A DNA stretch of 64,000 bases. Origin: an uncultured Nitrososphaerota archaeon (lineage in GTDB: Archaea; Thermoproteota; Nitrososphaeria; Nitrososphaerales; Gagatemarchaeaceae). The notes beneath the pieces were generated by a model. It did not search any database. It saw only the letters and a program-made list of their open reading frames with translations, and had not been told where the DNA came from. A program made the position numbers and the translations under genes. Of the stretch, positions 5,340-40,139 are shown piece by piece. How positions within the stretch are numbered: position 1 is the first letter of the stretch; the number at the start of each line of letters is the position of its first letter. The stretch spans positions 32,001-96,000 of the forward strand of contig CAWISW010000003.1 of NCBI GenBank assembly GCA_963838925.1, given 5' to 3'.

Positions 5340-8300
5340 TTGCGGGGCTGGATACTCGACCTCTACACCGAGAGCCCCGGGAAGATGGTGGTGTGGCTGA
5401 AGCTCGAGGGCGGCGAGACCAGGAGGCTCGTCGACAGGTGGGCGCCCTCGATCTTCGTGGCCTCCGACAGCAGGCGAGACCTGGCCGACCTCGAGAAGGG
5501 GAAGGGGCGGGAGTTCTCCTGGTCGAGGCGCGTCATGAAGCTCGAGAGGGCAACCGACACGCGCGAGAGCGAGGTCCTCGAGCTGGTCGTGGACGACGCG
5601 AAGAAGCTCGCGCCACTCGCCGAGAGCGTCGAGCGCTCGAGGCCCTTCGGGACGTACAGGCTCTACAACGTGGACGTGCCCCCCGAGCAGCTGTACCTCT
5701 ACGAGAACGACCTGTTCCCCCTCGCCTACTGCGAGGTCTCGGAGACCCCCGACGGGCTGTGCTGGGAGCTCCACGACGACATATGGTCGTGCCAGTACTC
5801 GGTCCCTGAGCTCCGCTCGGTCGACATCGAGGTGGCCGTCAGAAAGTCAGGGAAGATGGCCAAGGTCTCCGACCCCATAGAGTCGATCAGCCTGAAGGGC
5901 GGGGACGGCTCCGTCTCGAGGATAGGCGGCGGGTCGGAGCGCGACAAGATCCTCGCCCTCGTCGAGGAGGTCAGGAGGCTCGACCCCGACCTGGTGTTCA
6001 CCAGCGACGGCGACTCGTTCGTCCTGCCCTACCTCGCCTCGAGGGCCGCGGCCAACGGGGTCGCCCAGCGGCTCGTCATCGACAGGGACGGGACGGTCCT
6101 GGAGGCCCCGGCGAAGAAGGGGTCGTCATACTTCAGCTACGGCAAGATCCTGTTCAAGCCCTCGGCGATGAAGCTCCGCGGGAGAATTCACCTCGACAAG
6201 ACCAGCTCCTTCGTCCACAGGGAAACCGGACTTGAGGGGTTTTACGAAGTGAGTAGGGTGTGCAGGCTCCCACTCCACATAGCCAGTAGAGCGAGCATAG
6301 GCAAGGCTCTCTCGAGCCTCCAGTTCTACCACGCGACCAAGGACGGGATCCTCATACCTTGGAAGCCCACCATGGCCGAGAGCTTCAAGAGCAGAGCAGA
6401 GCTTCTCGTCGCGGACCGCGGGGGGTTCATCTTCGAGCCGGAGCTCGGAGTGCATGAGGGGATTGGGGAACTAGATTTCTCCAGTCTATTCCCCAACATC
6501 ATGAGCAAGAAGAACATCTCGCCAGAGACCGTGAGATGTAAGTGCTGCCCCGACTCCACGAACAGAATCCCCGAGCTCGACTGGAATGTCTGCGAGAGGC
6601 GCCCAGAGGGAATAGTCCCCAAAGCGGTCAAGATCATCGTGGAGAAGACGGATGAAATACAAGAGGCTGGAGCAGGTCACCGAGGGCGAGGAGCGGGCAC
6701 GCTACCAGGCTCGGAGAGATGCCCTCAAATGGGTTGGGGTCGCATGCCTTCCTAAGGAATCCCCGGTCTTCATCAGACGAGATGGCATTGACAGATTCTC
6801 AAGGATTGGGGATTTCATAGACGGTCTTGTGGGCGACAGAGCAGGCGTTGTAGAATGTCCGCCTGGAATCTATGTGGCGGGAATGGGTGACGACTACAAG
6901 GCCAAGTTCTGCAAGGTTGCTCGCCTCATCAAGAAGCCGAACAATCGGAAGCTTCTGTCTTTTGTGATGGAAGATGGGCGGAAAATCGTCGCCACGCCCG
7001 ACCATCCGTTCTTTATCCTCAGCGGAGGAGAGATGGAGGTAAAGACGGCGGAGAAATTGCAAGTCGGCGAACTCGTGCCCGTGGCAAAGAAGATTCCACC
7101 GGCCAACGAAATCCAGCAGATTGACCTCATCGAGAAACTGGAAAATTTGCTCACTCCCACGGAGAAACAACTTTGGAGAGTTTCAGGAGAGCAGCTCAAG
7201 GCATCAATCAAAGCAAAGCGCCAAACGCTCGTTGATGCGGCGATTCCCGAAGGATATTCTTACCAAACTGTGGTAACTTGGTGCAAGAGCGGAATCATTC
7301 CTTTGAGGTTTCTTAGCTTGCTCGATATAGCGCCCGAGATTCATCGAGAGCTACGGATAGGATCAGGAAGAAGAAAGGGCGGAAGAGTTGCATGGCTGCC
7401 CGCTGTTCTAGAGGTCGATGGTAGGCTCGGATTTTTCCTAGGCGTGTTCGTAGCGGATGGAAGCGCCACAAACAACGTGGTAAGGCTGGACATAGCACTT
7501 TCTGAGCCCGAGCTACTGGAGACCACAAGAAAGCTTGTGGAATCAGTTTTCAAAATCTCGCCTCATGTTTACAAAGAGAAGAAGGCTCAGATGAATGTAG
7601 TCCAGATAAACAGTGCGAGCTTGGTCAAGGTTCTGGAAAAAGTCTTCGGCCTACCTGGCTCTGCAGACAGAGGCAAACTCAAGGTTCCTGACATCATCTT
7701 CAACTGCCCAGCGCAGACAGCACACAGGTTCATGGCAGGGTTGGTCGCTGGCGATGGGAACGCTGCCAAACGACGCAAGTTCGTCAGCATCGCGACAAAA
7801 TCAAAGAACCTCCAGAATCAAATCTGCGTCCTGGCGGCTAGGTTGGGGTTGGCTTTTCGAATGGGTACAAACCGCGAGGGGACTCAGCCTCTGTACACAG
7901 TCAATTTTGTGGGACCGCAGACACTTGAAAGGATCGGGGATTGGGAGTACTCGAAAGAGGGACAGCGAGATAGAATCCGGTCTTGGTCTGAAGAGATTCA
8001 GACAGGGACTTGCACTCACGCAAGATACGAGAGACTCCCTATAGAGGAATCCGGACTGTTCACTCTCGCGAGGGCTACCAGAACCTCATCTGAACCGCAT
8101 GCGAGAATTGGATTCCGACAATGCCCAGTTCAGGTCGAAAGGAAAATTTCTCGTATTCTTTCAAGAGAGCTGAGCGACAATCAGATGAGGCAGACTATGA
8201 GGATAGAGAGGCTCGTCGGTAGCGATTTCGGATTCGTCAGGATAACGAGGATTGAGGAGCTGGATTCGTGCCCCGAATACGTCTATTGCTTCCAGCTGGC

Positions 8301-9223
8301 AGAAGACGAGGTACCCGGGTTCCTTACCGGGGAAGGTTTGATCTTCACGCACAATTGTTTCGGCTATCTCGGTCACGCCAACGCGAAGTTCGGGCGCATC
8401 GACGCGCACATCGGGGTCTGCGCCTGGGACAGGAAGGTGCTCATCGACGCGGCGAGGGTCGCGGAGAGGCGGGGCTTCAAGGTGATGCACGGCATCGTCG
8501 ACTCCCTCTGGCTTAGGAAGGTCGGCGCGGGCGAGGACGACTTTGAGAGGCTCCGGAGGGAGATAGAGGCGGAGACGAAGTTCGCCATCGCATTCGAGGG
8601 GATCTACAAGTGGATCGCGTTCCTCCCATCGAAGGTGGACGCCGGGGTCCCGGTGCTCAACGCAGTACTTCGGCGCGTACAGGGACGGGAGGCTCAAGGT
8701 CCGCGGAATAGAGGCGAGGCGGCACGACACGCCTGCGTTCTTCTCAAAGTGCCAGCTGGAGATCCTCGAGCTGCTCGCCAGGGCCGACACTGTCGAGGAG
8801 GCGAGGGCGATGGTCGACGGGTGCGTGGGCGTCTTCCTCAAGCACGCGAGGTCGCTCCTCGAGCACCGCGCGCCCATAGCGGGGCTCGTCTTCACGAGGA
8901 ACCTCTCGAGGAAGCCCGGGGAGTACGCGAACAGGTCGCTGACGTCATCGGTCGCTGACCAGCTGGTCAGGGAGGGCGTGGAGTTGCACGCGGGGGAGGC
9001 GGTGCAGTACGTCATCACGGACTATCAGTCCAAGTCCCCGGGAAGGAGGGCGGTGGCGCTCGACCTGGTGGACGAGGATACGGCCTACGACGCGAAGAGG
9101 TACGTGGAGCTCCTCGCTGAGGCGTGCTCGACGGTCCTGAGGCCGTTCAGGGAGGAGTGCGGCGAAGAATGGCTGGTGCGGGAGGTAGAGCGGCGGATCA
9201 TGCATTCCGAGTCCCTGGCGTGA
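5340..9223 (+). CDS. polB2: Family B DNA polymerase, PolB2 type, intein-containing (apparent frameshifts near 6648 and 8663)
   Basis: Motif A ELDFSSLFPNIM, motif B KWVGVA|CFGYLG, altered motif C HGIVDSLW typical of PolB2, KVRGIEARRHD after correcting the frameshift. Confidence 0.88.
6745..8355 (+). mobile_element. Intein (537 aa) with LAGLIDADG homing endonuclease
   Basis: Starts CLPKESPV; block B ATPDHPF; LAGLIDADG motifs FLGVFVADG and FMAGLVAGDG; ends IFTHN followed by Cys+1; more AT-rich than host. Confidence 0.95.
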
Positions 9224-11937: not shown

Positions 11938-12911
11938 GTGTCGAGAACCCGGGTCGTCACGGATGCCGGCGTCTATGAGGCGGACGCGGACTGGGCGAGG
12001 ATCCCCGACGGCTGGTCCTTTCGCGAGGTCGCAGGCGTGGCAACCGACTCGCGCTCGCGCGTCTACGTCTTCAGCAGGAGCGAGCACCCGATGATGGTGT
12101 TCGACAGGGAGGGCGGGTTCATCTCCTCGTGGGGGGAGGGCGTCTTCACCAAGGCCCACAACGTCCGCGTCTCGCCCGACGGCTTCGTCTTCTGCTCCGA
12201 CCTCCTCGACCACACCGTCCGCAAGTTCACTCCAGGGGGGAGCTACTGATGACCCTGGGGACCGCCAACGTGCCGTCGGACACGGGAGGGGACGGGAAGA
12301 GCTCCAAGATCAAGAGGTCGGCAGGCCCCTTCAACGGGCCCACCGACGTCGCGTTCGGGCCTAACGGCGAGCTGTTCGTCACGGACGGCTACGCGAACGC
12401 GCGCGTCCACAGGTTCTCGGCGGACGGCGAGCTCATCGGCTCCTGGGGGGCGCCCGGGGGCAAGCCCGGGGAGTTCAGCCTCCCGCACGGCGCCCTCATA
12501 CAGGGCGGGAAGACCCTCTACGTCGCCGACCGGGAGAACAACAGGGTGCAGGTCTTCGACCTCAAGGGGAAGTTCGTCTCCCAGTGGACGGACTTCGCCG
12601 GCCCAACGGGGATCTCTGCGTGCTCGGACGGGAGCCTCGTCGTCAGCGAGTTCGGCTACGACCCGGCGATTCCCACGCGGTACTCGGTCCCCGCGCACGG
12701 CAGGAGGATACTGCCAAGAGTGACCGTGCGCTCGCCGGACGGAGAGCTCCTGGCCAAGATCGAGGGGGAGGACAAGTGCGCGCAGGGGAGCTTCTTCGCG
12801 CCCCACTCGGTGTGCGTCGACCGGAACGGGGACATCTACGTCGGCGAGGTCCCGATCACCCGGCGCGCTCCTGGTCCTTGCCACACGCTACAGAAGCTGG
12901 TCAGGCAGTAG
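11938..12911 (+). CDS. NHL-repeat beta-propeller (peptidyl-alpha-hydroxyglycine lyase-like); frameshift in G-run near 12240
   Basis: FNGPTDVAF, FVTDGYANARVHRF, FSLPHG, LYVADRENNRVQVF, FFAPHSVCVD. Confidence 0.85.
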
Positions 12912-12949
12912 CGGATAGACGCTTTTATTTCACGTGAAGTTCCTGTTGC

Positions 12950-13588
12950 GTGAGTGCTCTTTTCGAGTCTGAAAGGGTCTCAGAACTTGTAGGCGCGATA
13001 CTCGGAGACGGAAACATCTACGACAAACGGCCGGACTATGTCGAGATGTGTGGCAATCCGAGGAACGACCTGGCATACTATGAGAACGTCTTGCTTCCAA
13101 TCGTGAGGGAGGAGCTGGGAAGAAATCCAAAGCTCTTCTTGAGAGACGGAGGACTGCGCTTCAGGATTAACCAAAAGTCCTTCGTAGAGTGGCTCAAGGA
13201 TATTGGTCTCCCGGCGGGCGAAGCAAAAGGGTCCGCCGCGATTCCAGACTTCATAGTCTCCCGCGGAAAGTTCCTCGTCCGATGTGTAAGGGGCATCTAC
13301 GACACCGACGGTAGCGTGTACTTTGACAGGCGGTCGGCCTATCTCAGGCCGTATCCCCGAACCGAATTGCAGATGACCAACGAAGCACTCTTAGACCAAT
13401 TAGACAAGATTCTAAGCCAAATGGACATCAAGCACTCGTTCGTAAGACGCAGTGCGTCATTGTCGCTTGAGACGGCTGGCTTGGAGTCTCTGCGCGGTTT
13501 CTTGCAGAAAATAGGCTTCTCCAATAAGTATCATGTCAGAAGGATTGGAAGCGAGTATCCTGAATTAGTTGGGCTCAACTGCGATTAA
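12950..13588 (+). CDS. Free-standing double-motif LAGLIDADG endonuclease
   Basis: ELVGAILGDG and VRGIYDTDGSV motifs; no splicing motifs; AT-rich codon usage. Confidence 0.85.
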   Translation: MSALFESERVSELVGAILGDGNIYDKRPDYVEMCGNPRNDLAYYENVLLPIVREELGRNPKLFLRDGGLRFRINQKSFVEWLKDIGLPAGEAKGSAAIPDFIVSRGKFLVRCVRGIYDTDGSVYFDRRSAYLRPYPRTELQMTNEALLDQLDKILSQMDIKHSFVRRSASLSLETAGLESLRGFLQKIGFSNKYHVRRIGSEYPELVGLNCD

Positions 13589-13598
13589 AGTTTCAGTC

Positions 13599-13606
13599 TT
13601 TAAAAG
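13599..13606 (+). promoter_or_regulatory. TATA box of tRNA-Thr
   Basis: TTTAAAAG about 26-33 nt upstream of the mature tRNA 5' end. Confidence 0.55.
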
Positions 13607-13631
13607 TGTCAATTAAGGTAGGTCGAGCCGT

Positions 13632-13726
13632 GCCGGCGTAGCTCAGCCTGGTAGAGCGAACCACCTAATCGTGGGCTCAAGTCTCTCGTAAGGACTAGGT
13701 CCCGTGTTCAAATCGCGGCGCCGGCT
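13632..13726 (+). tRNA. tRNA-Thr(CGT) with a 21-nt non-canonical intron (13660..13680, position 27/28)
   Basis: GCCGGCG/CGCCGGC acceptor, U73; spliced anticodon arm AGTCT-CTCGTAA-GGACT; BHB-like junction GAGC/GCTC helix with inner CCAC/GTGG stem; followed by T-tract. Confidence 0.9.
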
Positions 13727-13731
13727 TTTTC

Positions 13732-14493
13732 TCATATCTTAGAATCCGCTCTAGACTTTATCGACTTGAGTTTGACATAGACGTTATCCTCTTCCAAGAC
13801 TGCATTCCGAATCGAACTTGGATCCCGGCCTTGCAGAATCATTCGTTTCACTTTCAAATCCAACCAACTAGGCCATTTTCGCGGGAATACTCGAGCATTA
13901 GCTAACTTACGAAGAAGTTTACCTCTGTGAGTATCCACAAATGGACTGAAAATCCAGAGAGTGTTTGCGATGGCAACCGTGATGCTAATCCCGCAACTTC
14001 CACGATGCCAGTATTCCCTGGGGTTCGCATTTAGGGATGTAAGAAGATCCTTGATCAGGCGGACATTTGGTTCGCTAGTTATCGTGACTGTCTTGTTCCT
14101 GATGTTGACTGACCCATCGGAGTCGGCTAGGCCTCGAAGAAACCAAAGCCGGTTCTCGGGTGACGCGAGAAGAAGCCAGTTCATTTTCACAGGATGATGG
14201 GAGGTGACTTCGGTCTCTGCGAGCCCGAGACAGGAGACGTGGAACCAGAGGAATACTTCGGAAAAATATGAGTTCCACTTGAATGCTCCGTGCGGTTCTG
14301 TTTCGTTTGGAAGTGCATCTACAATCCTGCTCCATGGTACTCCTAGTTGAGTGATGCAATCCATTACGGAATTTCCAAGCGCGAGATTCTCCTCATGCCC
14401 TCGACATAGTTGAAGCTGGAATCTGGCCCACTGGTGCCGAGTGGAAAATGTCTTTCCTGCATCGCCTACCATCCACCCCAGAAAGTAATACAT
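13732..14493 (-). CDS. Free-standing double-motif LAGLIDADG endonuclease (frame open upstream to about 14727)
   Basis: YFLGWMVGDAG and FLRGLADSDGSV motifs; AT-rich; stop 5 nt after the tRNA 3' end. Confidence 0.82.
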   Translation of the reverse strand: MYYFLGWMVGDAGKTFSTRHQWARFQLQLCRGHEENLALGNSVMDCITQLGVPWSRIVDALPNETEPHGAFKWNSYFSEVFLWFHVSCLGLAETEVTSHHPVKMNWLLLASPENRLWFLRGLADSDGSVNIRNKTVTITSEPNVRLIKDLLTSLNANPREYWHRGSCGISITVAIANTLWIFSPFVDTHRGKLLRKLANARVFPRKWPSWLDLKVKRMILQGRDPSSIRNAVLEEDNVYVKLKSIKSRADSKI

Positions 14494-14793
14494 GAGTTGA
14501 AGGAATCGGTCCTTATGTTTAGCGTCGCCTAGATGGGCCAGCCTTATCCGAAGAACCCCATTCTCAAACTCTGCGGGGGACCTAATCGGGGCAAAACTGA
14601 GATTGACTGAAGCCCATTTTTTAGTGACCGAAGCGGAGCCCGGTTTCCTCGAGAGAAACCACCTCTCCCTCTCACCTGCAATAAGATGAAGTTGACTTGG
14701 GATGAATGTGATTGGAGAGTGAGACCCTCAAATGCAATAAGAAGTTGTCTGGGAATCTAAGCGCCCACGCTGACCGATTATCCGCATAGTTCT

Positions 14794-14813
14794 TCTTTCT
14801 CGATCGAGAAAGA
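14794..14813. repeat. Perfect 20-bp palindrome TCTTTCTCGATCGAGAAAGA
   Basis: Read directly; abuts the tRNA-like fragment. Confidence 0.85.
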
Positions 14814-14840
14814 GAGGGCTCAAATCCCTCCGTCGGCTCC
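14814..14840 (+). repeat. Isolated variant tRNA 3' end (T-arm plus 3' acceptor strand)
   Basis: GAGGG-CTCAAAT-CCCTC hairpin followed by CGTCGGC-T-CC, versus CCGTG-TTCAAAT-CGCGG-CGCCGGC-T in tRNA-Thr. Confidence 0.7.
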
Positions 14841-14849
14841 TACCTCTTC

Positions 14850-15548
14850 TCACGAAGGGCCCATGCTGATGTAGGGCGCCATCGAGCGGAGGACCTTCCC
14901 CTCGGCCTTGCGCAAGTGCTCCTCGTAGGTGGTCCTCGGCAGCCTGAGCTTGCTGGCCATCTCCTCGGTGGTCACCTTCTTGGGGACCTGGTAGTAGCCG
15001 TTCTCGAGCGCGAAGACGAGCGCCTGCGCCTGCTTCTTCGTTAGCCCGCCGAAGAGCGCGCTCGTTGAGACCAGCATCGTGTCCTTGACCGCGCCCGACC
15101 TGATTGCCCGGCGGGAGATGACCTCGACCTTGCAGTACCCGCCGAGCGTCGCGAAGACGTTGCGCGCGTCCTTCTCGCTGAACGAAATCATCCTGTAGTA
15201 CTCCCAGCCACCCTTGTAGACGCAGGGCTGTAGCTCGAGGCAGTTGTTCTTCTCGAAGACCGGGGTCACGGGCGCCGGTATGCTGTCGCACCCGCAGTGG
15301 TGGATGACGACCTGGAGGTTGCGGACGCTGTTCGACCTGCGGAGGGGCTTGACCTTCATCGCCCTCCAGACCGAATCGATGTCGTCTTGATACCGGTCGA
15401 AGCTCTCTACCCCGCCTCCCTTGGAGATCTCGAGCACGTCGGTGTCCGAGTTGCACCACGAAGACATGACGAGCTCGGGGTGCTGCTTCGAGAGGTCGTT
15501 AAGCGGGCAGTCATGCTGGAGCCTGAAAGCGGTCTCGTAGAGCGTCAT
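14850..15548 (-). CDS. Transcription regulator with C-terminal Bat-type HTH (HTH_10)
   Basis: LTKKQAQALVFALENGYYQVPKKVTTEEMA...TYEEHLRKAEGK. Confidence 0.88.
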   Translation of the reverse strand: MTLYETAFRLQHDCPLNDLSKQHPELVMSSWCNSDTDVLEISKGGGVESFDRYQDDIDSVWRAMKVKPLRRSNSVRNLQVVIHHCGCDSIPAPVTPVFEKNNCLELQPCVYKGGWEYYRMISFSEKDARNVFATLGGYCKVEVISRRAIRSGAVKDTMLVSTSALFGGLTKKQAQALVFALENGYYQVPKKVTTEEMASKLRLPRTTYEEHLRKAEGKVLRSMAPYISMGPS

Positions 15549-15681: not shown

Positions 15682-16068
15682 TTGGCGGACGCAAAATTGG
15701 AAACGGTCAACGGCAAACTGCAACTCGTGATAAGCAGCAAGAAGGTCCTCGTACGCGTGGAGCGGGTCGAGGACTCGTTCATGACGTGGGACGGGCAGGT
15801 GCGAGTCAACAGGAGAAGGGTGAAGGTCTACGACTACGTATTCGACGACAGCCAGGCGAGGGCCCTGAAGGAGGCCCGCGAACTGGCGAGCAAGTCAGGC
15901 ATGGAGCTCGTGGTGACCGACCTCACCCGGCGGAGCGCCCTAGAGCGCTTCTTTCGGTCCGGGCTGAACATGATCCGCGCGCAAGCGCGCGTGAGGACGG
16001 TCACCGCCGAGAAAGGCACTGGGCCTCGAAGTTCCGACAGTCTCAGGCCGCAGGCCTGCCGGCCTTGA
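15682..16068 (+). CDS. Hypothetical protein
   Basis: Host-like codon usage; no recognised motif. Confidence 0.55.
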   Translation: MADAKLETVNGKLQLVISSKKVLVRVERVEDSFMTWDGQVRVNRRRVKVYDYVFDDSQARALKEARELASKSGMELVVTDLTRRSALERFFRSGLNMIRAQARVRTVTAEKGTGPRSSDSLRPQACRP

Positions 16069-16501
16069 AGTCGGCCTCGAGCGCCTTCTTGTAGATCTTC
16101 CAGTGCTTGATCCCGTCTGCCTCCCACTCGTCCTTGTCCTCGACCTCCCTCTTGCTGTCGTACGTCACCACGAACTTCATGTCGAGCCTGGACTTGTTCT
16201 TGCCCAGTGGTTTCACCTTGTAGTCGCCCACCTCCCTCCCGTCTCCGCAGGTGTCAAGGTGCCACGACTTTGGACGGTTGAGCCACACCGCCCTGACTCC
16301 CTCAAAGGTGTCCTTGCCCTCTTTGTAGGTGACGCGCCAGACGACGCGCTGCGGGCTCTTCTCGAGGATCTTCCTGGTGGTCTTGGACCCTGTGTACTTG
16401 TTGTCGTCCTCCCGGAAGTCCGTGCACCATGAGAAGACGTAGTCCACTGGGGCGTTGACGTCTATTGATAGCTTGTATTTCTGATTGATTGGCCTGGCCA
16501 T
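16043..16501 (-). CDS. SRPBCC/START-like domain protein
   Basis: SIDVNAPVDYVFSWCTD...C-terminal WKIYKKALEAD helix. Confidence 0.6.
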   Translation of the reverse strand: MARPINQKYKLSIDVNAPVDYVFSWCTDFREDDNKYTGSKTTRKILEKSPQRVVWRVTYKEGKDTFEGVRAVWLNRPKSWHLDTCGDGREVGDYKVKPLGKNKSRLDMKFVVTYDSKREVEDKDEWEADGIKHWKIYKKALEADFKAGRPAA

Positions 16502-16555
16502 GTCCTGAATCCAAGCACAGCTTCGAAGTGTTCGAGTTAAGTGTTTCCGGCGCAC

Positions 16556-16568
16556 CGAAAACTTAAGT
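16556..16568 (+). promoter_or_regulatory. BRE plus TATA-like box of tRNA-Phe
   Basis: CCGAAAACTTAAG about 27-39 nt upstream of the tRNA. Confidence 0.55.
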
Positions 16569-16594
16569 GAGCATCGAGTCTGAGCCGGAGTCGT

Positions 16595-16731
16595 GCCAAG
16601 GTAGCTCAGCCTGTCCCTACGGGGGCTATGGAGAGTGCCGCAAGGCCTCTAACACTCGGCTGAAGACCGAGAACAACCGTCACAAGGATTGTTGTCGGGA
16701 TCTGTCGTCGGTTCAAATCCGACTCTTGGCA
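16595..16731 (+). tRNA. tRNA-Phe(GAA) with three non-canonical introns (16614..16629, 16636..16652, about 16672..16701)
   Basis: Removing the three inserts gives a canonical 74-nt cloverleaf GCCAAGGTAGCTCAGCCTGGGAGAGCACTCGGCTGAAGACCGAGCTGTCGTCGGTTCAAATCCGACTCTTGGCA. Confidence 0.9.
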
Positions 16732-16778
16732 CTTTAATCAACGAGCACCCACGCTCGAATCTATGCTCTGACCCGGGA

Positions 16779-39449: not shown

Positions 39450-40139
39450 CTAGATGTGCGACAGCTCTGCGGGGGAGATGTAGTCCAGCTCCTTCTCCCT
39501 CTGCCTGTAGTCGGGGCAGACGCGGGCCAGCTTCCTCTTGAACGCGGGCGAGTGGTTGAACTCCTCGAGGTGCGTCACCTCGTGGAGGACGACGTATTCG
39601 CGCAGCCGTTCGGGGAGCGCGATCAGCTGCCAGCTGAATGAGATCCTGCCGGTCCTCGTGCAGTAGCCCCAGTTCTTTATCTCCCTCACGTCCGCCCGCT
39701 TGTAGGCCGCGGGCAAGGTAGGGGCTAGCTCGCCGAGCTTCTTCATCACGTATCTCGACGTCTCCTTCAGGAACCACCTGCGAACGAGCTCCCGCACCCT
39801 CGACGGGTCGCTGGCTCGGACGACGAGCGTCCCGCGTTCCAGGTCGGGGAGAAGCTCCTCCCTCTCCCTTCCTTCTTCGTGGATGATGTCCAGGAACCTG
39901 CCGTCGAACATCACCCTGCGGTCGTCGAGTATCCTCTTGGTGCTCCGCATCTCCTCGTACTTCTCCAGTATCCATTCGCGCCTTTGGCTGATCGACCTGC
40001 TGGCGTCGCCGAGCTGCCCCCGGGGTAGGACGACCTCGAGCGTCAGATCCGGCCTGAACCTGAAGTACGTGTAGCGCCTGCTCGTGCCACGCAGCACCAG
40101 GTACTCGATGCGCCTCCCGCCTATCTCGAGGGTGGGCAA
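39450..40139 (-). CDS. YgjP/DUF45 metal-dependent hydrolase
   Basis: WGYC...YVVLHEVTHL...NHSPAF. Confidence 0.88.
   Translation of the reverse strand: MPTLEIGGRRIEYLVLRGTSRRYTYFRFRPDLTLEVVLPRGQLGDASRSISQRREWILEKYEEMRSTKRILDDRRVMFDGRFLDIIHEEGREREELLPDLERGTLVVRASDPSRVRELVRRWFLKETSRYVMKKLGELAPTLPAAYKRADVREIKNWGYCTRTGRISFSWQLIALPERLREYVVLHEVTHLEEFNHSPAFKRKLARVCPDYRQREKELDYISPAELSHI

Follow-up and report, generated by a model that had tools for sequence, protein, structure and literature searches.

The 64,000-nucleotide stretch of archaeal DNA analysed here (the window) covers positions 32001-96000 of contig C3 in a source genome (G000) of 1.84 Mb in three contigs. It contains a block of about 1.9 kb in which a tRNA-Thr(CGT) gene lies between two open reading frames (ORFs), ORF1 and ORF2, both free-standing genes of the LAGLIDADG endonuclease type. 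On one side the block is bounded by an NHL-repeat gene, which stops at 12911, and on the other by a minus-strand gene for an HTH_10/HVO_A0563-type regulator, with its stop codon at 14850. It contains, in this order, ORF1, the tRNA gene, ORF2, a 20-bp palindrome and a tRNA-like 3' end. The GC content of the block (from ~12900 to ~14850) is 0.46-0.55, compared with 0.61-0.69 in both flanks. The following features were assigned, in window coordinates:

12912-12949, plus strand: left end of the ORF1 cassette, starting right after the NHL-repeat gene stop (from the sequence)
12950-13588, plus strand: ORF1, free-standing double-motif LAGLIDADG endonuclease gene, 212 amino acids (aa)
13589-13631, plus strand: spacer with TTTAAAAG (13599-13606), common to the two ORF1-bearing alleles (window and relative G018)
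13632-13726, plus strand: tRNA-Thr(CGT), hybrid gene (Rfam, ARAGORN, alignment with orthologues)
13702-14813, minus strand: ORF2 cassette, 1,112 bp (comparison with relatives G018, G006 and G022; direct-repeat spacing of 1,112)
13732-14493, minus strand: ORF2, double-motif LAGLIDADG endonuclease gene, likewise free-standing, 253 aa counted from the first ATG
14794-14813, no strand: perfect 20-bp palindrome TCTTTCTCGATCGAGAAAGA (from the sequence)
14814-14838, plus strand: displaced ancestral T-arm and 3' acceptor of tRNA-Thr(CGT), a non-functional remnant

An initial annotation, made from the letters of this DNA, had described a low-GC block of about 1.9 kb in high-GC DNA, an ORF1 stop codon 43 nt 5' of the tRNA and an ORF2 stop codon 5 nt 3' of it, two genes that lie outside the intron of the tRNA, and a 20-bp palindrome next to a variant tRNA 3' end; all of this agrees with the coordinates and compositions given above. 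It had also noted that no integrase is nearby, and the sole PF00589 match of the genome (C3:13943-14476) indeed lies ~31 kb off, outside the window, in a search that did not extend to serine recombinases. The annotation had further pointed to a palindrome upstream of each gene. For the 20-mer at 14794 this stands, as ~0.06 such palindromes are expected by calculation in 64 kb, but the 10-bp palindrome TTCACGTGAA at 12929-12938, although present, is at chance level (~60 expected in 64 kb) and adds nothing.

The hybrid tRNA-Thr(CGT) gene and its alleles

The tRNA at 13632-13726 scored 39.9 bits against the Rfam tRNA model (E = 5.5e-6) and was found by ARAGORN but left unnamed. Because its anticodon loop reads CTCGTAA by eye, with the anticodon at 13687-13689, it was assigned as Thr(CGT), and it is the only full-length Thr(CGT) match in the genome. 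The gene is a hybrid. Its 5' acceptor strand and D-arm are followed, after position 26, by a 21-nt intron (13659-13679), then by the anticodon arm and, from 13702 on, by a T-arm with 3' acceptor strand. That this tRNA bears an intron, as annotated initially, was confirmed by the 21-nt insertion and by its hairpin, which covaries among 11 aligned orthologues (CCAC/GTGG, CCA/TGG, CCC/GGG, CCT/AGG).

In the relatives G018, G020, G012, G006, and G022 the tRNA ends with an ancestral T-arm and acceptor, GAGGGCTCAAATCCCTCCGTCGGCT. The same 25-mer is found in the window at 14814-14838, detached from the tRNA and followed by the same downstream gene; it is identical at 25 of 25 positions to the functional T-arm and 3' end of G020 and lies inside longer matches to G018, G012, G006, and G022. 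The functional tRNA end in the window is CCGTGTTCAAATCGCGGCGCCGGCT (13702-13726), which has 17 of 25 positions in common with the ancestral end: T-stem pairs are swapped, one T-loop base is changed, and acceptor position 68 is changed. In G018, G006, and G022 the variable loop continues directly into the same sequence as occurs in the window from 14814 on. Because the ancestral 25-mer is displaced to 14814-14838 and the relatives run straight into it, the ORF2 cassette was delimited as 13702-14813. It is composed of the 25-nt replacement T-arm and acceptor, a gap of 5 nt, ORF2 on the opposite strand, an upstream region of ~300 nt and, as its terminal 20 bp, the palindrome TCTTTCTCGATCGAGAAAGA, which abuts the displaced T-arm. 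The cassette junction is located within the tRNA gene, and 8 of the 25 positions of the rebuilt end have been recoded. The combination that marks gene hybrids of the fungal mORF type, namely a new end, an ORF, and a native end that is closest to the relatives, is thereby found at 13702-13726, ORF2, and 14814-14838.

Acceptor position 5 is a G in the window, where it can pair with C68 of the new end; in the five relatives that have retained the ancestral 3' end it is an A. The hybrid gene is thus kept base-paired, which argues that the hybrid is the working copy. Among near relatives the T-stem is the most variable part of tRNA-Thr(CGT), and the D-arm is invariant. As a separate observation, made by eye, tRNA-Thr(CGT) of G019 (L054, ~1501-1610) seems to have a second insertion of ~20 nt inside the T-arm, the region replaced by ORF2-type cassettes elsewhere.

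A similar arrangement with the other type of gene was encountered in G010, where an ORF1-type gene (59% identical) is located convergently and directly 3' of tRNA-Thr(CGT). About 126 nt beyond the start of this gene there is a displaced 3' end with the T-arm CCGTG/CGCGG, the type that is functional in the window. Two unrelated endonuclease families have therefore inserted at almost one and the same point of this tRNA, and each has brought a replacement end of its own.

Using the tRNA as query, 23 genomes of the genus were searched and eight loci were compared; homologous loci have record titles of Nitrososphaerales or "Thaumarchaeota" metagenome-assembled genomes (MAGs). Neither ORF is present at the locus in G006, G022, and G019, where the NHL gene is followed by a ~53-nt spacer with a TTTAAAAA box, the tRNA, and directly by the HTH_10 gene. 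G012 has the same upstream side, without ORF1, and differs on its downstream side; G018 has ORF1 in the equivalent place and no ORF2; and G002 has only the tRNA in common with the window locus. G020 is also without ORF1 and has a different downstream insert of ~0.95 kb, the first 55 nt of which resemble the 3' end of ORF2. In addition, we observed in G020 an upstream small ORF (L052, 1172-1500) of ~70 codons, rich in acidic and basic residues, and in the downstream insert (L052, 1594-2540) two overlapping plus-strand frames of 141 and 176 aa, one of them with a LAGLIDADG-like 'LLYVTEGT'; Pfam searches with these two frames gave no significant match (none or E = 0.17). Two public soil runs, X1 and X2, contain exact pieces of the window together with other alleles, which belong to co-occurring relatives and not necessarily to the same species: one contig of X1 links 13714 to 14862 via an ancestral-type 3' end, and both runs have loose ends with the ORF1-less spacer. 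The comparison of these alleles shows both genes to be optional at an otherwise conserved NHL / tRNA-Thr(CGT) / HTH_10 locus. The initial annotation had proposed a check for empty alleles in related genomes, and such alleles were obtained from G006, G022, and G019, together with the ORF1-only allele of G018.

In the two ORF1-bearing alleles the entire spacer between the NHL stop codon and the tRNA is replaced by ORF1 and a different, promoter-like spacer with TTTAAAAG at 13599-13606. This spacer (13589-13631) is, apart from a TATA box, unrelated to that of the ORF1-less alleles, and TTTAAAAG is likely the tRNA promoter that was brought along by the ORF1 cassette. On the other side of ORF1, the left end of the cassette contains a TATA-like TTTTATT (12923-12929), which may be a promoter-like element, besides the palindrome TTCACGTGAA; alleles without ORF1 have their unrelated ~53-nt spacer in place of 12912-12949. 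Among the compared loci of the genus, ORF1 was found at the equivalent position only in G018 (76% aa identity). The nucleotide identity between the two copies is 76%, whereas the flanking genes are 81-84% identical to those of G018 and 79-86% identical to those of all compared relatives, and for this reason ORF1 looks like an old insertion and not a recent one.

LAGLIDADG proteins and their linkage to tRNA genes

Both proteins pass the cut-off of Pfam family PF14528 (22.5 bits) narrowly, ORF1 with 24.0 and ORF2 with 26.1 bits. Structure models reached a predicted local distance difference test (pLDDT) score of 93.6 for ORF1 (built on 22 homologues) and of 95.0 for ORF2 (built on 34 homologues). 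Foldseek searches with the models gave matches to I-Tsp061I, I-DmoI, PI-PfuI, I-SceI, and I-AniI with a probability of 1.00; the best PDB match of ORF1 was I-Tsp061I (E = 2.7e-11, TM 0.71/0.73), and ORF2 matched I-DmoI (E = 3.7e-6) as well as PI-SceI and I-SceI, with E values of 1e-5 to 1e-6 for LAGLIDADG enzymes. Each model has two alpha-beta-beta-alpha-beta-beta-alpha domains that are packed via two motif helices. The motifs are LGDGN (D20) and YDTDGS (D120) in ORF1, with D20 and D120 invariant in the 22 homologues, and VGDAG (D11) and ADSDGS (D124, D126) in ORF2, with these residues invariant in the 34 homologues. The aspartates at the motif ends are presumably catalytic, as in the LAGLIDADG family generally. 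According to the models, ORF1 and ORF2 have the LAGLIDADG fold with both catalytic Asp motifs, and we infer that they are active nucleases. Sequence searches of the two proteins against PDB chains gave nothing usable (one match at E = 0.37; none). The possibility that ORF1 and ORF2 are recent duplicates was ruled out, their similarity being restricted to the motif level (9 of 28 residues, E = 0.006).

The reading frame of ORF2 is open up to 14727 (331 codons), and the first codon of the ATG, GTG, or TTG type in it is the ATG at 14493; the 78-codon open stretch 5' of this ATG gave no significant Pfam match. A metagenomic homologue (P0031), which is 95% identical to ORF2 and 313 aa long, begins at a GTG, and the same position reads GAG, in frame, in the window. 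Members of the ORF2 family mostly have ~300-320 aa.

Some further relatives of ORF2 were noticed. A 437-codon paralogue (C1:95475-96785, minus strand), ~30% identical to ORF2, has no Pfam match and no known tRNA adjoining it; homologues with frames of 400-500 codons occur in most genomes of the genus. The paralogue may be a LAGLIDADG protein that was domesticated or that has another target. In G012 (two copies) and G009, ORF2-type genes (45-47% identical) are situated directly 3' of tRNA-Thr(GGT) (L037, L038). In G000 only a spacer of ~110 nt (C3:233216-233328) follows that tRNA; by eye, a short stretch of it resembles the 3' end of an ORF2-type gene, and the spacer may be a deletion scar. A 191-nt element 3' of tRNA-Thr(GGT) (L037, 2554-2744; G000:C3:233026-233216) is 97% identical between G012 and G000, far above the flanks, and matched no Rfam family at the gathering threshold.

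Within the source genome, 12 free-standing LAGLIDADG-like frames were counted, and 8 of them lie at most 100 nt from one of the 34 tRNA genes. None of 100,000 random placements reached this number (maximum 4), and a conservative neighbour-gene null gave a tail probability of 1.2e-9. The genome-wide enrichment beside tRNA genes, a check that the initial annotation had suggested, is therefore clear. The eight linked frames adjoin two tRNA-Cys, a 'tRNA-Asp', tRNA-Gln, tRNA-Thr (twice), a tRNA with CAT anticodon, and tRNA-Pro(TGG). Displaced tRNA pieces beyond the endonuclease gene were detected at tRNA-Pro(TGG), tRNA(CAT), and the 'tRNA-Asp'. At the first of these (C3:415542-416485), an intron-less displaced 5' piece is followed by an HTH-LAGLIDADG gene of 259 codons and by a full tRNA-Pro(TGG) with two introns (L167/L168). 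ARAGORN had called this region a 'tRNA-Pro(tgg)' with an 865-nt intron, a call that was rejected in favour of a displaced piece, an endonuclease gene, and a complete tRNA. The other nine of its ten long-intron tRNAs (235-1,524 nt overall) were considered false, as they contain no LAGLIDADG-like frame and overlap ordinary coding frames.

The linkage extends to homologous loci. All 16 ORF2-family loci from Nitrososphaerales/Thaumarchaeota MAGs abut a tRNA, 15 of them in convergent orientation; ARAGORN detected the tRNA in 11 of the 16 (16-64 nt past the gene), a custom parser in three more, and the 5' end of a tRNA was recognized by eye in the remaining two. These tRNAs are mostly Thr(CGT/TGT) and Met(CAT). 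For the ORF1 family, 63 of 80 loci on metagenome contigs had at least 200 nt downstream, and in 42 of these 63 the start of a tRNA falls within -40 to +130 nt relative to the end of the match, 40 times on the same strand; the background in the distant flanks is 10 tRNAs in 127 kb (0.079 tRNA per kb). A remnant of a tRNA 5' end was found upstream of the gene in 7 of 41 tRNA-linked loci of this family (shuffle p <= 0.01). A tRNA ends 400-520 nt upstream of the match in 18 of 53 ORF1-family loci with enough upstream sequence (L100-L120, L131, L154, and others); these upstream tRNAs are labelled Thr, Tyr, or Phe by ARAGORN and are nearly all on the opposite strand. Several ORF1-family genes are sandwiched between two tRNAs, like the gene in the window.

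A relation between junctions and introns was seen at some of these loci. In the metagenome contig L092, which encodes a protein 56% identical to ORF1, positions 1-26 of a tRNA-Thr are followed by the endonuclease gene and by a complete tRNA-Thr(CGT) with an intron right after position 26, so that the cassette junction coincides with the intron site 26/27. In L155, L158, and L160 the remnant likewise ends where the intron of the functional copy starts; L133 and L157 have no intron, and there the new 5' part differs at several bases. This is the pattern to be expected of an enzyme whose recognition site extends across the junction, with an intron or recoding as the shield of the rebuilt gene. 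For tRNA-Pro(TGG) in G000, the displaced 5' piece has no introns and retains a native upstream flank that matches the intron-less gene of G006, and the functional copy has two introns. Across the genus, G000 and G002, each with two introns, are the only genomes in which endonuclease genes were found beside tRNA-Pro(TGG); 2-3 introns occur in the absence of an endonuclease gene in several genomes, and G006 has no intron (range 0-3). These patterns would fit a cycle with loss of the endonuclease gene and retention of the intron, for which recombination between the two copies of the 5' part may be one route.

Other LAGLIDADG-containing frames were recorded as well. A family of 350-400 codons with two motifs and an N-terminal helix-turn-helix-like region has four members (C2:97199-98287, C2:217389-218447, C3:558750-559955, C3:751066-752190), one of which overlaps the start of tRNA-Gln(TTG), the other three having no known tRNA beside them. 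In the window, a 780-codon open frame (6616-8958, plus strand) with DNA-polymerase-like ends has two PF14528 matches (C3:39423-39644 and 39726-39932) and probably contains an intein with a LAGLIDADG domain, the polymerase name resulting from reading the translation. Seven further long frames of the genome, for example MCM-like and aIF2-gamma-like ones (named from their translations), contain LAGLIDADG domains. When intron length was not limited, ARAGORN also called a 'tRNA-Glu(ctc)' with a 646-nt intron at 16006-16732 of the window. As the called region coincides in part with a 170-aa minus-strand ORF, and as the genome has a normal tRNA-Glu(CTC) at another place, the call is probably false.

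A candidate cassette mechanism and its alternatives

We consider it likely, with a probability of roughly 70%, that ORF1 and ORF2 are unrelated free-standing LAGLIDADG homing-endonuclease genes and that each invaded the tRNA-Thr(CGT) locus as a cassette with a replacement tRNA piece. The endonuclease would cut, inside the tRNA gene, an allele that lacks the endonuclease gene, and repair of the break from a cassette-carrying allele would copy the cassette in. The cassette would split the recognition site and supply a substitute for the displaced part of the tRNA, which would thus remain functional. With the substitute recoded by swapped stem base pairs, or interrupted by an intron, the rebuilt gene would no longer be a target. 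The displaced native piece would stay behind as a fossil and could act as a homology arm in later transfers. Recognition sites are predicted at the junctions, that is, at about 48/49 for ORF2 and at 26/27 for ORF1. The core idea of the initial annotation, that tRNA-tied endonucleases spread with a recoded copy, is strongly supported by comparison: by the empty alleles, by the divergent new end with the displaced old end, by the genome-wide and family-wide tRNA linkage, and by the lack of an integrase nearby; its cutting step is a prediction from the architecture.

Cassettes of this form might also have been inserted by a site-specific recombinase, the LAGLIDADG genes being passengers or leftovers of larger elements that decayed. 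Integrative elements of archaea classically integrate into tRNA genes, insertion by an integrase likewise yields a new gene end and a displaced old end, and a tRNA-Thr case in Caldiarchaeum was read by its authors as a transposable, pNOB8-like element (PMC3293823). However, the 1,112-bp ORF2 cassette contains an endonuclease gene only, the single tyrosine recombinase of the genome is 31 kb away, and the one-gene architecture is repeated at eight loci in the genome and at dozens of homologous loci. The variant 3' end was considered as an integrase attachment repeat and rejected, since the repeats of an attachment core would be identical and the two tRNA ends agree at 17 of 25 positions. We therefore regard recombinase insertion as unlikely. 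Alternatively, the two proteins could be domesticated LAGLIDADG-fold factors, such as regulators of tRNA transcription or RNA-binding processing helpers, that are kept beside the tRNAs they serve. Maturases and the regulator WhiA, both of which are among the structural matches, are examples of recruited LAGLIDADG folds, the distances of 5-43 nt between the stop codons and the tRNA would permit co-regulation, and the 437-codon paralogue of ORF2 is widespread in the genus with no tRNA beside it. Such a role is quite improbable in view of the retention of both catalytic Asp motifs, the absence of the genes from the locus in most relatives that retain the tRNA, the low GC content, and the existence of decayed copies and scars; moreover, different families occur on one tRNA and one family on different tRNAs.

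The explanation to which we give the least credit is passive adjacency, in which any mobile genes accumulate in spacers around tRNA genes, as these tolerate insertions, and the displaced end is a local duplication. Such spacers are non-coding and often variable, and G020 has yet other inserts on both sides of tRNA-Thr(CGT). But the junction in the window is within the tRNA gene and not in a spacer, and the enrichment of LAGLIDADG genes is far above the neighbour-gene null. It is also the displaced end that equals the functional end of the relatives and the resident end that diverges, and a local duplication would give the opposite.

Several points weigh against the invasion of the locus by endonuclease cassettes, or against parts of it. 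Cleavage of tRNA-gene DNA and spread by break repair are predictions from the architecture of the loci. The ORF1 cassette has left no displaced 5' tRNA piece in the window or in G018, and the divergence of ORF1 is equally compatible with an old insertion, vertical inheritance, and later loss in other lineages. Given that the GTG start of P0031 reads GAG in the window, ORF2 may be N-terminally truncated here, and decaying or inactive. Four of the 12 free-standing genes are not beside a known tRNA (2.4-51 kb away). When ORF2-family loci were screened for displaced 3' ends upstream of the gene, p <= 0.05 in an ungapped 25-mer shuffle test was reached in only one of nine correctly parsed loci (one further locus was mis-parsed and five were unparsed), and the recurrence of CGCCGGCT 221-250 nt upstream in four ORF2-family loci is a post hoc observation. 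The genomes of the genus are MAGs of 54-96% completeness, in which absence of a gene elsewhere in the genome is not proven. With regard to the intron, all 11 aligned Thr(CGT) orthologues carry it, including those without either gene, so that intron and endonuclease genes are not inherited together; in L081 and L086, the tRNA-Thr(CGT) that adjoins an ORF2-type gene has no intron. The correlation with intron presence that the initial annotation had asked for was not significant in this genome (6 of 7 tRNAs beside endonuclease genes bear introns versus 12 of 27 others, Fisher p = 0.09). Its proposal of collaborative homing of bulge-helix-bulge (BHB) introns is accordingly only partly supported: the L092 junction at 26/27 and the intron-less displaced piece of tRNA-Pro(TGG) speak for it, but not the focal intron, which occurs without the genes too, or the intron-less tRNAs of L081 and L086.

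tRNA introns have usually been suggested to guard against integrating viruses and plasmids. It is an old question why archaeal tRNA genes have many oddly placed introns and why some of the genes are split, and the locus described here offers a concrete candidate for a driver, with small cassettes, one tRNA end replaced, the ancestral end kept as a fossil, and empty alleles in relatives. Quite tentatively, and with less confidence than we would need to argue for it, free-standing LAGLIDADG cassettes could be a main engine of archaeal tRNA-gene disruption, by seeding and spreading short, non-canonical introns as shields for the rebuilt target, by rapid recoding of stems, and by leaving displaced halves as raw material for split and multi-intron tRNAs. 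Cassette insertion as proposed for this locus would account for the hypervariability of T-stems between near relatives and would offer a way to replace parts of tRNA genes horizontally. Cleavage sites are predicted at 48/49 (ORF2 type) and 26/27 (ORF1 type), with matched susceptible and immune substrates at hand. New LAGLIDADG enzymes of this kind, which are compact and naturally diverse and whose targets can be inferred, also have practical interest as meganuclease scaffolds.

Comparison with known systems

In the literature covered, which did not include subscription journals and supplements, no description was found of free-standing LAGLIDADG genes that target archaeal chromosomal tRNA genes. 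In fungal mitochondria, mobile endonuclease ORFs (mORFs) form gene hybrids in atp6 of Allomyces macrogynus and in atp6, atp9, cox2, and nad3 of Glomus sp., and according to that report the endonuclease activity of the fungal element has been demonstrated (PMC3630166). The likeness is close: a LAGLIDADG (or GIY-YIG) ORF is inserted with a foreign, divergent 3' end, and the native 3' end, located downstream, is nearest to that of related species (PMC3630166). Unlike in the fungal case, the target here is a tRNA gene on an archaeal chromosome and activity is predicted from sequence; pairs of RNA stems are recoded with a compensating change on the opposite strand, and replacement of 5' ends and shielding by introns also appear. 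Phage T4 SegB is a free-standing GIY-YIG homing endonuclease encoded in the T4 tRNA gene cluster; its site includes the conserved T-psi-C stem-loop, and through it the SegB gene and adjoining tRNA genes spread to relatives that have no SegB (PMC2330249). It thus resembles the ORF2 type in being a free-standing homing endonuclease that targets the T-arm of a tRNA, as we propose for the latter. SegB differs in its nuclease family and in residing in a phage and not on a cellular chromosome, and the abstract describes neither a replacement end nor a displaced remnant (PMC2330249).

The archaeal monomeric LAGLIDADG enzymes I-Tsp061I, I-DmoI, and PI-PfuI have the same fold and the same two catalytic motifs and are the best structural matches. 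In contrast to ORF1 and ORF2, which are free-standing and outside the short intron of the tRNA, they are encoded inside rRNA introns or inteins.

A case from a related lineage is that of Caldiarchaeum subterraneum, which belongs to the class Nitrososphaeria in current taxonomy. At its tRNA-Thr(GGU) locus, a 1,868-bp insert, whose one ORF has 813 bp, lies between a 5' tRNA-Thr fragment and a new 5' part with an extra intron, and another copy is located beside tRNA-Thr(CGU) (PMC3293823). The 5' fragment, the one-ORF insert, and the new intron-bearing tRNA-Thr are all reminiscent of the loci described here. The difference is that the authors of this 2012 study assigned the ORF by SVMProt as recombinase-like, not as a LAGLIDADG homing endonuclease, and considered the insert a transposable, plasmid-derived element (PMC3293823). 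Only three of 201 genomes sampled from the class contained the ORF2 family, one of them with a weak match, and no link to the Caldiarchaeum case was obtained.

An example of collaborative homing is F-CphI, a free-standing endonuclease beside an ORF-less psbA group I intron of cyanophage S-PM2. It reportedly cleaves the allele without the intron at the site where the intron inserts, and the intron beside its gene protects the resident allele and is inherited together with the endonuclease. The ORF1-family cassette of L092, with its junction at the tRNA intron site, is similar in this respect. The introns considered here differ in being short, protein-spliced archaeal tRNA introns and not ribozymes, and the focal intron occurs without an endonuclease gene too. 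L092, with its order of positions 1-26, endonuclease gene, second 5' part with mini-intron, and positions 27-76, may represent a stage between an intron that bears an endonuclease gene and an ORF-less intron accompanied by a free-standing endonuclease.

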